This document shows positions 1-40,716 of a stretch of DNA of 41,983 nucleotides, one piece after another. The stretch covers positions 1-41,983 of the forward strand of contig JACQKR010000046.1 in NCBI GenBank assembly GCA_016204425.1, in the 5' to 3' direction. The translations under genes and the position numbers were made by a program. Under the pieces are notes generated by a model that ran no database searches, was not told the DNA's origin, and saw nothing but the letters and a program-made list of their open reading frames with translations. The stretch comes from Candidatus Levyibacteriota bacterium. Its GTDB lineage: Bacteria > Patescibacteriota > Microgenomatia > Levybacterales > UBA12049. Numbering within the stretch: the stretch's first letter is position 1; the number at the start of each line of letters is the position of its first letter.

Positions 1-203
1 GTACTACCTATATAGTACTTCCTATCTTTTTTACTTTGTAATATATAGGCAGTAAACATTGTAATAAGCCACTAGCCCCGACGAATTTCATTCGTGCGGG
101 ATTCCGATGGCAACGACCATCGGAAACGAACGCGGCGAATACCATCAGCCCCGCCTTGCGCGGGACTGAAAGATTATATCCTAAAATCACTCTCGAAACA
201 ATG

Positions 204-869
204 TTACGACCGTAATTTTCTTCGTAATACTTCAAGAAGTGACCGTGCTGTGTCTTGTCCACCAAGACCGAATGCGATTCCTCCTGCAATAGCGATCATC
301 GCCACAAACCCAGTAAAGAGAATGCGAATGAGATCCTGGGCAACGCCAAGCTGATTCAGCACCGCAAGCATTACAAATACGGTGATTGCCCACCGTGTAA
401 TTGATGCGATTGCTTGGGACACGTCTTCTGAAACACCACGAGTTGAGCCAAGGACCACATCATGCGCTAATCGAGCAAAGACGAGTCCGACAAGTGCGAT
501 AATTGCTGCGACAAAAACATTTGGCAAGTACAGCAAGAATGCATTGAGTACGGTGACAATTTGTGGTATTCCCCAGACTTCGGCTGTTGGAATAAGGAAA
601 ATAATGATTACAAACCAGCGAATAATCTCAGCCAAAATATTCGACCAAGAAAATTCTTTTTTCGCCTCCGGCACGCCGTATCGATGCAAAAATCCTTCAA
701 CGTTTAAGGCTTTTGCTATTCCAAGAACGAGGCGTTTCACAAAGGATGCGACGATAAAACCGATGAGAAGAAGGACAACGCCTGCGATCAAGTTTGGAAT
801 AAACGTGGCGGCTGCCAGAAACCCTCTGTTGATTGAGGAAATAAGGGTTTCCCCGACATTTGATGTCAT
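204..869 (-). CDS. Multi-pass membrane protein with repeated 'conserved TM helix' units (MscS N-terminal-like); function unknown
   Basis: 221-aa ORF with ATG at 869-867, preceded by an AAGGGGGGTGA Shine-Dalgarno. Several hydrophobic helices are each followed by charged loops (IAGVVLLLIGFIVASFVKRLV, VAAIIALVGLVFARLAHD, AITVFVMLAVLNQLGV). Family assigned from memory, not searched. Confidence 0.7.
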   Translation of the reverse strand: MTSNVGETLISSINRGFLAAATFIPNLIAGVVLLLIGFIVASFVKRLVLGIAKALNVEGFLHRYGVPEAKKEFSWSNILAEIIRWFVIIIFLIPTAEVWGIPQIVTVLNAFLLYLPNVFVAAIIALVGLVFARLAHDVVLGSTRGVSEDVSQAIASITRWAITVFVMLAVLNQLGVAQDLIRILFTGFVAMIAIAGGIAFGLGGQDTARSLLEVLRRKLRS

Positions 870-1128: not shown

Positions 1129-1200
1129 GGGCCGTTAGCTCAGCGGTAGAGCAGGAGCCTTTTAAGCTCTTGGTCGGAGGTTCGAATCCTCCACGGCTCA
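1129..1200 (+). tRNA. tRNA-Lys (anticodon UUU), no encoded CCA
   Basis: Hand-folded cloverleaf. Acceptor GGGCCGT/ACGGCTC with one G-U pair, D arm GCTC-AGCGGTA-GAGC, anticodon arm GGAGC-CTTTTAA-GCTCT, T arm GGAGG-TTCGAAT-CCTCC, discriminator A. Confidence 0.9.
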
Positions 1201-1329
1201 CTACAAAAATTTTATGCTTTTGCATGAGATTTTTGTAGATGACTTAATGAGATTTGTCTCGAATCTGGACTTCCTTGATTTGTTACTCAAAATAGCAGGA
1301 CATCCCGCATAGCGGGACTCCACGCTCAC
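1201..1329 (+). repeat. tRNA-Lys trailer element, copy 1, ending in an echo of the tRNA 3' terminus
   Basis: Hairpin CTACAAAAAT..ATTTTTGTAG (1201-1238), ATGAC..AATGAGA..GTCTCGAATCTGGA (TCTCGAATC at 1257-1265), hairpin TCCCGC-ATA-GCGGGA, then CTCCACGCTCAC (1318-1329). This last block repeats the tRNA end CTCCACGGCTCAC (1189-1201) with a 1-nt deletion. Homologous to 23394-23515. Confidence 0.55.
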
Positions 1330-16128: not shown

Positions 16129-16223
16129 CCTCCCGAAGCCCAGCCTCATAGGGCAATTTAATAAATTGAGGAGCGGAACCCCACTTCGCTAAAGCTACGC
16201 GGGGCGAAGGGAGGTGATTTTTA
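16129..16223 (+). promoter_or_regulatory. Structured 5' leader, copy 2 of 3
   Basis: CCTCCCGAAGC (16129-16139), CCTCA..TGAGG hairpin, CCCCACTTCGC (16179-16189), TAAAGCTACGCGGG, GCGAAGGGAGG (16204-16214), TGATTTTTA, ATG at 16224. A possible promoter TTGACA-16-TATATG lies at 16054-16081. Confidence 0.45.
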
Positions 16224-22318: not shown

Positions 22319-22460
22319 AGTATTCACCCCCCTTCGCCCTCCGAAGCTTTATGCGTAGGAGGGTTTCGCACCTCTATTTTCTCTTAATGATATCTCAGTT
22401 GAGGTTCTGAGCTTCGGGGGATCTCCGGCTTATGCCTTCGACCTCCTTTCACCGGAAGTT
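22319..22460 (-). promoter_or_regulatory. Structured 5' leader, copy 3 of 3
   Basis: In gene orientation: CCCCCGAAGC (rc of 22411-22420), 47 nt containing CCTCA..GAGG, CCCTCCTACGC (rc of 22353-22363), ATAAAGCTTCGGAGG, GCGAAGGGGGG (rc of 22327-22337), TGAATACT, ATG. Confidence 0.45.
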
Positions 22461-23321: not shown

Positions 23322-23393
23322 GGGCCCGTAGCTCAACGGTAGAGCACTACCCTCTTAAGGTATTGGTTAGAGGTTCGAATCCTCTCGGGCTCA
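23322..23393 (+). tRNA. tRNA-Lys (anticodon CUU), no encoded CCA
   Basis: Acceptor GGGCCCG/CGGGCTC, D arm GCTC-AACGGTA-GAGC, anticodon loop CTCTTAA, T arm AGAGG-TTCGAAT-CCTCT, discriminator A. Confidence 0.9.
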
Positions 23394-23515
23394 CAACGAA
23401 AAATCTTGTGCTTTAGTACGGGATTTTTCGTTCATGACAATGAGAGAATCGTCTCGAATCCGGAGCTCCGCAGAGCGACGTCCTGGAACGAAGCGAACGG
23501 GACTCTCGGGCTCAC
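23394..23515 (+). repeat. tRNA-Lys trailer element, copy 2, ending in a perfect 13-nt echo of the tRNA 3' terminus
   Basis: Hairpin AACGAAAAAT..ATTTTTCGTT, whose stem changes compensate relative to copy 1. Then CATGACAATGAGAGAATCGTCTCGAATCCGGA (TCTCGAATC at 23452-23460), ..CGGGAC, and CTCTCGGGCTCAC (23503-23515), identical to 23382-23394. Confidence 0.55.
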
Positions 23516-23554: not shown

Positions 23555-23560
23555 ACTCAA

Positions 23561-23816
23561 AGAGGCGTCGAAGCTCAAAACAGAGCTGAGCCAGGGGAAG
23601 AAATCCCGCCATTAGGCGGAAGAGTAGAACCCTTCGGGAGTGCCCGTAACAGCACTGAATGAGAAGTCCGCCTTCTCCCGATTACATCGGGATTCGGCGA
23701 GACGAAGTAAGGTGGCACCACGAACAAAGTTCAAAGTTTAAAGTTGAAAGTACAAAGTTAAACCTTGAAAATGATCGTCCTTGCGAAAGCTAAATGCTTT
23801 TGAGAGGGCGTTTTTT
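23561..23816 (+). promoter_or_regulatory. T-box-like riboswitch leader (tRNA-sensing) with an enlarged antiterminator loop
   Basis: T-box sequence AAGTAAGGTGGCACCACG (23705-23722). Antiterminator: A1 GTAAGG (23707-12) / CCTTGC (23779-84), 7-nt bulge TGGCACC, A2 ACGA (23720-23) / TCGT (23775-78). The competing hairpin CGTCCT..AAAGC-TAAAT-GCTTT..AGGGCG (23776-23810) contains the GAGAGGG SD and is followed by T6 and the ATG at 23817. AGTA and CCGTAA (F-box-like) elements lie upstream. Specifier codon not identified. Confidence 0.65.
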
Positions 23817-34566: not shown

Positions 34567-34639
34567 GGTGGAAGACGGGTGCTGCCCCCGCGACCTTCAG
34601 GTCCACAACCTGATGCTCTACTGTTGAGCTACATCCACC
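34567..34639 (-). tRNA. tRNA-His (anticodon GUG) with G-1:C73 and non-canonical D and T loops
   Basis: rc reads G GTGGATG TA GCTC AACAGTA GAGC A TCAGG TTGTGGA CCTGA AGGTC GCGGG GGCAGCA CCCGT CTTCCAC C. The extra 5' G pairs with C73, which is His identity. The T loop is GGCAGCA instead of TTCRANY, and the D loop has AG instead of GG. Confidence 0.7.
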
Positions 34640-36498: not shown

Positions 36499-36825
36499 GT
36501 GCGCGTGGGATGCACCGACTGGTGCGTCCCATTCCTTACATCTAAGATTTTTTATTATGTCTACGTACTCCACAATTCCCCAAAAAATTTTCTATATGTT
36601 GGTTATTCTGGAGATTTGAAGCAAAGGCTTACTTCGCATAATAACGGTGAGAATAAATCAACAAAAGCATTTGTACCACTTGAACTAATTCACTATGAAG
36701 CATATAGAAATAAAAAAGACGCTAAACGGAGAGAAACTTATCTAAAAACTACAAAAGGAAGAACCACATTACGATCAATGCTTAAAGAATACTTATCAGA
36801 TACGAAAAACCCAAAAAACTTGTGA
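36499..36825 (+). CDS. Small stand-alone GIY-YIG nuclease domain protein (copy 1), immediately 3' of tRNA-Arg
   Basis: YYVYVLHNSPKNFLYVGYSGDLKQRLTSHNNGENKSTKAFVPLELIHYEAYRNKKDAKRRETYLKTTKGR is a complete GIY-YIG core. There is no ATG next to YYVYVL. The only in-frame start is the GTG at 36499, which lies inside a strong hairpin (GGGATGCACC-GACT-GGTGCGTCCC), so the start is uncertain. Confidence 0.8.
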   Translation: MRVGCTDWCVPFLTSKIFYYVYVLHNSPKNFLYVGYSGDLKQRLTSHNNGENKSTKAFVPLELIHYEAYRNKKDAKRRETYLKTTKGRTTLRSMLKEYLSDTKNPKNL

Positions 36826-40422: not shown

Positions 40423-40684
40423 TCAATATGACCTTAATGTGTTTTTAAATGCAATCTTTATCTGATTCCGCCCAAATCCACTCTTTAGAAATACCTCTCT
40501 CGTTTTTGCATCCTTTTCGTCAACAAAATATTCGTAATGGATTAGTTTCAGTGGTCGACGATGCTTTGTTGAGCTCACATCTCCTCGAGCGTGTTCAGAT
40601 AGTCTTTTTTTTTAGATCTGTTGTAAATCCAGTGTAAAATTTTCCGTCTAATAAACTTATAAGTATATAAACGTAATACTTCAT
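40423..40684 (-). pseudogene. Small GIY-YIG nuclease gene (copy 2), 3' of tRNA-Gly, frameshifted in an A9 run
   Basis: From ATG (rc of 40682-40684): MKYYVYILISLLDGKFYTGFTTDLKKK. After a 1-nt shift in the A9 run (T9 on the plus strand, 40605-40613): RLSEHARGDVSSTKHRRPLKLIHYEYFVDEKDAKTREVFLKSGFGRNQIKIAFKNTLRSY*. The 262-nt span equals 87 codons plus 1 nt. It is not in the ORF track as a single ORF. Confidence 0.7.
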
Positions 40685-40716
40685 CAAAAAGTCGAACTTT
40701 TTCGTTTATATATACA

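Follow-up and report, generated by a model that had tools for sequence, protein, structure and literature searches.

A small gene-less module, possibly an insertion, at the 3' end of tRNA-Lys genes in Levybacteria

The 3' ends of tRNA genes are among the classic targets of mobile DNA. Integrative elements and genomic islands leave direct repeats of tRNA 3' ends that run from the T-loop to the 3' end (attachment sites, att), and cis-mobilisable elements (CIMEs) are integrase-less derivatives of streptococcal integrative and conjugative elements. Casposons are Cas1-dependent, are kilobases long, insert at tRNA gene 3' ends, and make target-site duplications of 14–15 bp. To our knowledge, almost nothing is known about tRNA-3'-end integration in the candidate phyla radiation (CPR), whose genomes are tiny and whose single-copy tRNA genes are not expendable. 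We analyzed a 41,983-nucleotide stretch of DNA, here called the window, from a tiny groundwater-type CPR bacterium of the Levybacteria (Levyibacteriota, Microgenomates). Each of its two tRNA-Lys genes is followed by a trailer of roughly 120 nt that has no open reading frame (ORF) and ends in an echo of the 3' terminus of the tRNA that it follows. In our best reading the trailers are copies of a small DNA module without an ORF that inserts specifically at the 3' end of tRNA-Lys genes in Levybacteria, whether as a miniature element or as an integration footprint. We hold this reading with a confidence of about one half because the module has no terminal inverted repeats, a ragged right end, and no demonstrable empty site.

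Like att-bounded islands and CIMEs, the module follows directly on a tRNA gene that it leaves intact, has a direct repeat of the tRNA 3' end at its borders, encodes no recombination gene, and occupies a tRNA hot spot that recombinase-bearing elements also use. It differs from them in being only about 100–116 bp long and in that the repeat is always the host allele, across hosts and isoacceptors. The tRNA 3'-end target and a duplication of similar length (the last 13 or so nt) are shared with casposons, whereas the size of ~100 bp, the lack of terminal inverted repeats, and the lack of cas1 or polB nearby (cas1 was not searched beyond the window) are not. Miniature inverted-repeat transposable elements (MITEs) are likewise short, non-coding, flanked by target duplications, and present as several diverged copies with a patchy distribution. 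Unlike MITEs, the module combines strict single-site specificity, a 13-bp duplication, a ragged right end, and a very low copy number with the absence of terminal inverted repeats. We know of no parent element for it. The 13-bp host duplication, the missing inverted repeats, and a T-loop-like internal site are the points that make the module unusual, and a recurrent gene-less module of ~110 bp at tRNA-Lys offers a sequence-defined handle on tRNA integration in the CPR.

The two trailers and their tRNA-end echoes

The trailer after tRNA-Lys(UUU) is designated T1 (1202–1329) and the trailer after tRNA-Lys(CUU) T2 (23395–23515). The full module also follows the orthologous tRNA-Lys(UUU) in two other Levybacteria (loci L231 and L235), which gives four full members. 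The features of the two window loci are as follows.

1129..1200, plus strand: tRNA-Lys(UUU), with discriminator A at 1200 and C74 at 1201; called by ARAGORN and by the Rfam tRNA model (72.4 bits); CCA not encoded
1189..1201, plus strand: left copy of the 13-nt direct repeat, CTCCACGGCTCAC, tRNA positions 62–74
1201..1238, plus strand: T1 hairpin with A-tract and U-tract, directly 3' of the tRNA (fold, z = -5.9 for the whole trailer; covariation in the four members)
1240..1266, plus strand: T1 bipartite block TGAC-N13-TCTCGAATCT (alignments; second half T-loop-like)
1267..1317, plus strand: T1 variable segment ending AGCGGGA, with a local hairpin TCCCGC-ATA-GCGGGA; the structure is not kept between members
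1318..1329, plus strand: T1 echo CTCCACG-CTCAC, one G deleted relative to the tRNA
23322..23393, plus strand: tRNA-Lys(CUU), position 74 at 23394; called by ARAGORN and Rfam; CCA not encoded
23382..23394, plus strand: left copy of the 13-nt direct repeat of tRNA-Lys(CUU), CTCTCGGGCTCAC
23395..23432, plus strand: T2 hairpin AACGAAAAATC..GATTTTTCGTT, homologous to that of T1, terminator-like (fold, alignment, covariation)
23435..23461, plus strand: T2 block TGAC-N13-TCTCGAATCC (alignment)
23462..23502, plus strand: T2 variable segment ending AAGCGAACGGGA; L231 has AAAGCGAATGTA at the same place
23503..23515, plus strand: T2 echo CTCTCGGGCTCAC, matching tRNA positions 62–74 at 13/13 (p = 0.002 within 1 kb)

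T1 and T2 align block by block, as an earlier note on this DNA had claimed. Their local alignment scores 52, and the best of 1000 shuffles scores 26. Both run through a hairpin of 17–18 bp, the block TGAC-N13-TCTCGAATC(T/C), an unalignable stretch, the motif (A)GCG(AA)CGGGA, and the echo. The same comparison bears out two particulars of that note, namely a shared motif at the same distance from the tRNA (TGAC, 13 nt, and TCTCGAATC(T/C) in both trailers) and a variable segment that ends in CGGGA before the echo. The insert between tRNA and echo measures 116 nt in T1 and 108 nt in T2 (99–116 bp over the members), and its first base is the base after tRNA position 74. The CTCGAATC motif is invariant in T1, T2, L231, and L235, the N13 spacing after TGAC is identical in T1, T2, and L235, and GTCTCGAATCYGGA has exact matches in the window at T1 and T2 only. 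The CTCGAATC block resembles a tRNA T-loop (TTCGAATC). Divergence among members is ~27% or more where the module can be aligned. Its middle cannot be: the variable segment is 33–52 nt long including the right-end motif, and roughly 30–45 nt of it are unalignable.

No conserved ORF was found within the inserts. Direct reading revealed no conserved small peptide, the ATG-initiated frames of T1 and T2 being different. It also showed that terminal inverted repeats are lacking, since the right ends (..GCGGGA, ..AATGTA, and ..AGAGGG), when reverse-complemented, do not match the left ends, (T/A)AC(G)AAAAA. A promoter reading of TGAC-N17-AATCYG was rejected, with a poor -10 element and no plus-strand site from the promoter scan in either trailer.

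The echo covers the 3' strand of the T stem, the 3' strand of the acceptor stem, and the discriminator plus one more base (tRNA 62–74). Each window echo matches its own tRNA, T2 at 13/13 and T1 with one G lacking, and a downstream echo is significant for only the two Lys genes among the window's seven tRNAs. The same holds beyond the window. In all four full members the echo is the allele of the resident tRNA, and the four alleles differ (CTCCACGG.., CTCTCGGG.., CTGTACGG.., CCGCCCGG..). Echo and resident tRNA are separated by one indel in 52 nt, and three of the four echoes are perfect. The proposal that the echo was generated locally from the resident tRNA is thereby upheld in four members with four different alleles. 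By our estimate, a neutral echo from a single old origin would keep such identity with a probability of order 1e-3 or less.

The tRNA-Lys(UUU) genes across Levybacteria (L177–L256) are invariant at positions 8–48, and their T stem occurs in at least 10 compensated variants that differ even among close relatives; pair 7-66 switches among T-A, G-C, and A-T. This T-stem evolution is unusually fast precisely in the part copied by the echoes, and use of the site as an integration hot spot may explain it. An echo that matches its own allele despite a fast-evolving strand and a diverged module points to insertion, or else to selection or gene conversion. Insertion is favored over the latter two by the G missing from the T1 echo and by the many genomes that lack the module.

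The selective explanation holds that the module is functional, either as a mimic, in RNA or DNA form, of the tRNA-Lys 3' end (in processing, or as a decoy for RNase Z or the CCA enzyme) or as a DNA decoy for the recombinases and nucleases that attack this end. It draws on the perfection of three of four echoes despite strong divergence elsewhere in the module, on the way the echo tracks the hypervariable T stem, and on the TGAC-N13-CTCGAATC blocks, which look constrained amid free-running sequence. The G lost from the T1 echo would, however, bulge an acceptor-like pairing, about 55 related genomes do without the module, and the genes downstream differ in every case. We consider selective maintenance unlikely.

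It is far less credible that one tRNA-Lys gene was duplicated together with its flank and that the copies then diverged and evolved in concert. A repeat scan does show tRNA plus trailer as one long diverged repeat (D1, D10). Yet the tRNA of T1 is identical at 72/72 positions to the tRNA-Lys(UUU) of L144 and of L148, and the tRNA of T2 matches the tRNA-Lys(CUU) of L133, where the trailer is absent, at 71/72. The two window genes match each other at 58/72. Relatives with the same tRNAs have no trailer, and the module is found in other genomes beside other tRNA alleles. The two genes are old paralogues, and plain gene duplication is therefore largely refuted.

The idea of a split echo, in which CTCGAATC and the 13-nt echo form an interrupted copy of tRNA positions 55–74, was also rejected. 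Similarity of the middle of the trailers to the tRNA gave p = 0.12–0.89, and locus L214 has the internal TCGAAT motif together with a complete CGAATCC..CTCAC echo.

Carriers, non-carriers, and a possible route of insertion

Relatives were collected as 71 tRNA-Lys loci retrieved by tRNA sequence and as 80 loci retrieved via the syntenic mechanosensitive (MS)-channel-like gene; the latter include 57 tRNA-Lys(UUU) genes, 53 of them in the window's divergent orientation. The module is present at 2 of the 57 tRNA-Lys(UUU) genes (53 in orthologous position). L231 has the hairpin GAAAAATCTCC..GGAGATTTTTT, then ..CGTCTCGAATCT.., ..AAAGCGAATGTA, and a perfect 13-nt echo, CTGTACGGCTCAC. L235 has the hairpin TACGAAAAAATC..GATCTTTTCGTA, GCTGAC-N13-CCTCGAATCC, and a perfect 13-nt echo, CCGCCCGGCTCAC. 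A decayed orphan copy was recognized at L214, where GGCTCAC, a hairpin, TCGAAT, GCGAAGGAGGCGGGG, and a 19-nt echo follow one another and no tRNA gene is called. The tRNA-Lys(CUU) of L113 is followed by the same architecture, with a terminator hairpin, ~50 nt, and a 17-nt echo. Copies outside the two window loci, in which the earlier note had seen a test of its proposal, therefore exist in full at L231 and L235 and in decayed form at L214, with the layout also at L113.

About 55 orthologous loci lack the module, and the carriers are scattered on a neighbor-joining tree of the adjacent protein. By the neighboring-gene tree, the non-carriers include the window's nearest relative, L181, and the close sister of L231, L225. 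Two genomes are occupied at one isoacceptor and empty at the other: the UUU gene of one is occupied (L235) and its CUU gene is empty (L121), and the CUU gene of the other carries the analogous module (L113) and its UUU gene is empty (L207). L144, which has the same tRNA as T1, shares with T1 the hairpin and the following ACTTAAT(G/A)AGATTT (p = 0.011) and nothing further.

Motif and model searches added no copies. Covariance models of the trailers, the kind of search that the earlier note had suggested for the whole genome and its relatives, matched T1 and T2 alone in the window. The strict motif AATGAGA..GTCTCGAATCYGGA gave 3 matches in genome contigs, each of them in coding sequence or attributable to chance and away from tRNAs; 16 matches in ~9 loci of metagenome contigs, as expected by chance and none near a tRNA; and 1 match, coding, in viral contigs. 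Synteny via the oxidoreductase gene at 1377-2810 or via the aminotransferase gene, whose nearest homologues are 57-59% identical, led to relatives without an upstream tRNA-Lys.

If the trailers are an insertion module, it would enter right after tRNA position 74 of tRNA-Lys genes, and the 13-bp repeat would be made from host DNA at insertion, by target-site duplication or an equivalent repair synthesis. The repeat would then be neither borne by the element nor kept by selection. A recombinase or nuclease acting in trans would recognize the conserved internal site TGAC-N13-YCTCGAATCY. The module's hairpin would replace the terminator of the tRNA gene, leaving the tRNA functional, and the window copies may be immobile relics. 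The junctions that this route predicts are, in sequence form:

T1 empty site: GAATC-CTCCACGGCTCAC-AACGACTAAAC
T2 empty site: GAATC-CTCTCGGGCTCAC-TGCATTCC
T1 circle: ..AGCGGGA-CTCCACG(G)CTCAC-TACAAAAATT..
T2 circle: ..AACGGGA-CTCTCGGGCTCAC-AACGAAAAATC..

Several observations weigh against an insertion. The missing terminal inverted repeats and the poorly conserved right end are unlike classical transposons or MITEs. The echo is 13 nt long in T1, T2, L231, and L235 and varies among more loosely related copies, L113 having 17 nt and L214 having 19 nt. At L144 the hairpin plus 14 nt occur without an echo, and part of what is called the module could be native flank. The window holds no candidate mobilizing enzyme among the neighboring genes or by tblastn with a serine recombinase, tyrosine integrases not having been scanned for window-wide. 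There are only two copies in 42 kb and none in the metagenome or viral strict-motif scans. Finally, no filled and empty pair with continuous flanks was found: for L231 versus L225 and for the window versus L144 or L181, the downstream DNA is wholly different, and a clean insertion is not demonstrated for that reason. The expectation of empty sites in orthologous loci is accordingly borne out in part, in that ~55 loci lack the module in a patchy pattern, and not in the form of a clean empty site with continuous flanks. The broader proposal of an ORF-less insertion at the tRNA 3' end gains from the own-allele echo, the patchy distribution, and the occupation of two Lys genes in one genome; its derivation from a GIY-YIG element, considered below, did not stand. 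A hitherto undescribed type of miniature element whose enzyme reads the T-loop-like CTCGAATC, or a selected decoy that co-evolves with the hypervariable T stem and protects the essential tRNA-Lys gene from serine-recombinase and GIY-YIG elements, would be an improbable outcome even when the two are taken jointly.

The hairpin and the RNA alternative

The first 38 nt of the module resemble a Rho-independent bidirectional terminator, with an A-tract, a stem-loop, and a U-tract directly after the tRNA. This layout, with a tract of U4–U6, is found in all members. Over the four members 88.9% of the alignment cells in the stem pair, and 5 pairs are changed on both sides. None of 500 shuffles reached the observed pairing and covariation score, 1 of 500 reached the both-sides count, and slid controls collapsed. 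The stem differences between the trailers had been described as compensatory, and the five covarying pairs over four members confirm it. The rule-based terminator scan does not call the hairpin, the stem having fewer than three G-C pairs. Hairpins of this design also occur after tRNA-Lys in L238 and L144, relatives that lack the module (and in L113). In contrast to a plain terminator, the outer stem (ACGAAAAA..TTTTCGT) is common to different loci and genomes, which indicates that the hairpin travels with the module. From its sequence and pairing, the hairpin is a probable intrinsic, bidirectional terminator brought by the module.

Structural covariation is confined to this first hairpin. The two-thirds of the trailer 3' of it have a consensus energy of -0.34 kcal/mol and no consensus structure. 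No Rfam family matched the trailers at gathering or E-value thresholds, and nothing on the reverse strand is conserved or folds. That the terminator precedes the TGAC-N13-CTCGAATC block and the echo argues for a role of both, now or formerly, at the DNA level. The tRNA-end echoes and T-loop-like motifs are thus most likely DNA scars and not an RNA signal, and such motifs are not to be taken for RNA genes in annotation.

These results bear on the selective explanation and on the alternative offered in the earlier note, a conserved precursor-processing or decoy structure. In its favor, a fold of the full T2 precursor pairs the 5' acceptor strand of the tRNA with the echo. Against it, the terminator-like hairpin stands between the tRNA and the remainder, so that low co-transcription is expected, and the 3' two-thirds are without conserved structure. 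The processing or decoy alternative is weakened, since the sole conserved fold is the terminator-like hairpin and is placed before the rest.

Other inserts at tRNA-Lys and neighboring genes

In at least 9 of the fetched loci, a large serine recombinase gene is convergent to tRNA-Lys and reads through it in antisense. The L101 gene (763-2640, minus strand) is a 625-aa ORF with an N-terminal Resolvase domain; the others are at L121, L179, L181, L182, L186, L188, L212, and L232. These loci suggest that, in Levybacteria and Gottesmanbacteria, a family of elements uses the tRNA-Lys 3' end as its integration site. No echo was found within 7 kb for the attR of the L101 element, and the relatives' serine recombinase had no tblastn match in the window. 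Unrelated short inserts plus echoes are present at the tRNA-Lys of L090, L096, L124, and L105. Together these loci demonstrate a hot spot of integration at the tRNA-Lys 3' end in the Levybacteria phylum, which serves at least three kinds of insert, namely the module, large serine-recombinase elements, and GIY-YIG cassettes.

The trailers could be decayed attL-attR remnants of integrase-borne islands, left by site-specific recombination in the T-loop/3' end and later deletion of nearly the whole element, the repeat being the att core and the remnant immobile. Many CPR and Chloroflexi tRNA-Lys loci in which a short, unrelated stretch separates the tRNA from an echo beginning at C56 of the T-loop (L090, L096, L124, L105, L143, L149) are consistent with this view, as are fragments of foreign tRNA-Lys alleles at L092, L131, and L240, the serine recombinase genes that overlap tRNA-Lys in relatives, and the acquired look of the DNA to the right of the T1 echo. 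Had the copies decayed independently, however, two loci of one genome and two further genomes would not agree in block order and breakpoints. In a Campbell-type integrase model, one of the two repeat copies is derived from the element. An element-borne repeat predicts mismatches at positions 62–67 after a move between hosts or between UUU and CUU genes, and none was seen in four of four members. The trailers also have no nhmmer similarity to the tRNA-proximal end of the serine-recombinase elements. We regard att remnants as doubtful, somewhat more so than a selected module. In relatives a serine recombinase gene abuts tRNA-Lys, and the trailers might have been what decay left of its 3' end; this candidate was rejected for lack of nhmmer similarity.

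The genes neighboring the inserts encode an MS-channel-like protein, an oxidoreductase, a glyoxalase, and an aminotransferase. The first gene after the T1 echo is the pyridine-nucleotide disulphide oxidoreductase at 1377-2810. Its product is 80-86% identical to homologues in metagenome-assembled genomes (MAGs) labelled Daviesbacteria, Microgenomates, Patescibacteria, and 'Gammaproteobacteria', and the best relatives of two other window proteins that were checked are 58-75% identical. The exact 477-aa product has no record in the protein-position index. The upstream context of the homologues is unrelated to that of the window and different everywhere, which argues that the gene has probably spread horizontally. 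The T1 module lies at the edge of apparently acquired DNA.

Homing cassettes also use tRNA neighborhoods; T4 segB, in a tRNA cluster, is a free-standing GIY-YIG homing endonuclease cassette (PMC2330249). The module shares with such cassettes the tRNA neighborhood, tRNA-adjacent GIY-YIG genes in the same genome, and displaced tRNA fragments in the relative L109; it differs in having no ORF, no sequence similarity, and a duplication geometry that is not that of a homing-endonuclease cut. The GIY-YIG genes near tRNAs are:

36499-36825, plus strand: GIY-YIG gene after tRNA-Arg(UCU)
40423-40687, minus strand: GIY-YIG gene after tRNA-Gly(UCC), frameshifted in an A9 run
L258 1100-1340: reading frame before tRNA-Glu, immediately left of the window, GIY-YIG-like as judged by eye

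The earlier note had derived the trailers from such cassettes. Small GIY-YIG genes do adjoin three tRNAs of this genome (Arg-UCU, Gly-UCC with the frameshift, and Glu just outside the window), and in L109 a displaced, near-full pseudo-tRNA (positions 8–76) is separated from tRNA-Lys(CUU) by a GIY-YIG gene. A fold at window positions 60-185 (minus strand) opens with the 5' end of tRNA-Glu, the GIY-YIG-like frame lying between fold and tRNA-Glu. The sequence comparisons did not support the derivation. None of the GIY-YIG-flanking regions is significantly similar to the trailers (against the window's GIY-YIG leaders and trailers, p lies between an uncorrected 0.03 and 0.87), and the covariance models of T1 and T2 match nothing else in the window. 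The motif TCTCGAA(A)T reported after tRNA-Arg(UCU) has no significant trailer similarity (p = 0.14–0.30), and the tRNA-end-like echo reported behind that GIY-YIG gene is at chance level (score 12, p = 0.95, for the tRNA-Arg 3' end compared with the 1 kb downstream). The 2-nt overhangs produced by GIY-YIG cuts do not account for a 13-bp duplication. An origin of the trailers as ORF-less derivatives of GIY-YIG cassettes is very unlikely. Cassettes adjacent to tRNAs are active in Levybacteria, with no sequence link to the trailers.

The 60-185 region (minus strand) is GC-rich, lies downstream of the MS-channel-like gene, folds strongly (z = -5.2), and has no Rfam match. At its start stands GCCGCGTTCGT, which is the 5'-terminal 11 nt of the tRNA-Glu located ~340 nt beyond it (L258), and the region has the look of a pseudo-tRNA that was displaced and remodelled. 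In L143 (echo region) and L109 (pseudo-tRNA), perfect palindromes rich in GC (CCTGCCTGCCGGCAGGCAGG; TCCGCCAGCTGGCGGA) are inserted into the displaced tRNA fragments.

The relatives of the MS-channel-like gene (204-869, minus strand) are nearly all Levybacteria MAGs at 60-75% identity. The aminotransferase has best relatives at or below 59% identity, except for three short contigs from one sequencing project (SRR121133xx/SRR121134xx). Same-population Logan contigs L171 and L172 reach the T2 region and are identical to the window across T2, the perfect echo included; no polymorphism between window and contigs is visible over this region. The Logan contigs with the MS-channel-like gene (L258, L259) are 1.1-1.4 kb long and end near the start of tRNA-Lys(UUU), before T1.

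A TTGCAT-N16-TATAAT promoter begins 12 nt after the T2 echo. A T-box-like leader (..AAGGTGGCACCACG..) follows at 23560-23810, with a terminator at 23775-23815, before the aminotransferase and phosphoenolpyruvate-carboxylase gene pair; it scores 10.2 bits on the Rfam T-box model and is hence divergent. A GC-rich leader (..AAGCTnCGnnGGGCGAAGGGnGGTGA, then ATG) is repeated before three genes (870-905, 16178-16217, 22324-22351), and a similar 28-nt copy (ACCCCACTTCGCTGAAGCTTCGAGGGGC) is found within the oxidoreductase reading frame at 1763-1790. The tRNA at 34567-34638 (minus strand) is called by Rfam at 50.5 bits and not by ARAGORN, has an aberrant T arm (GCGGGGGCAGCACCCGTC), and may be non-canonical or decaying.

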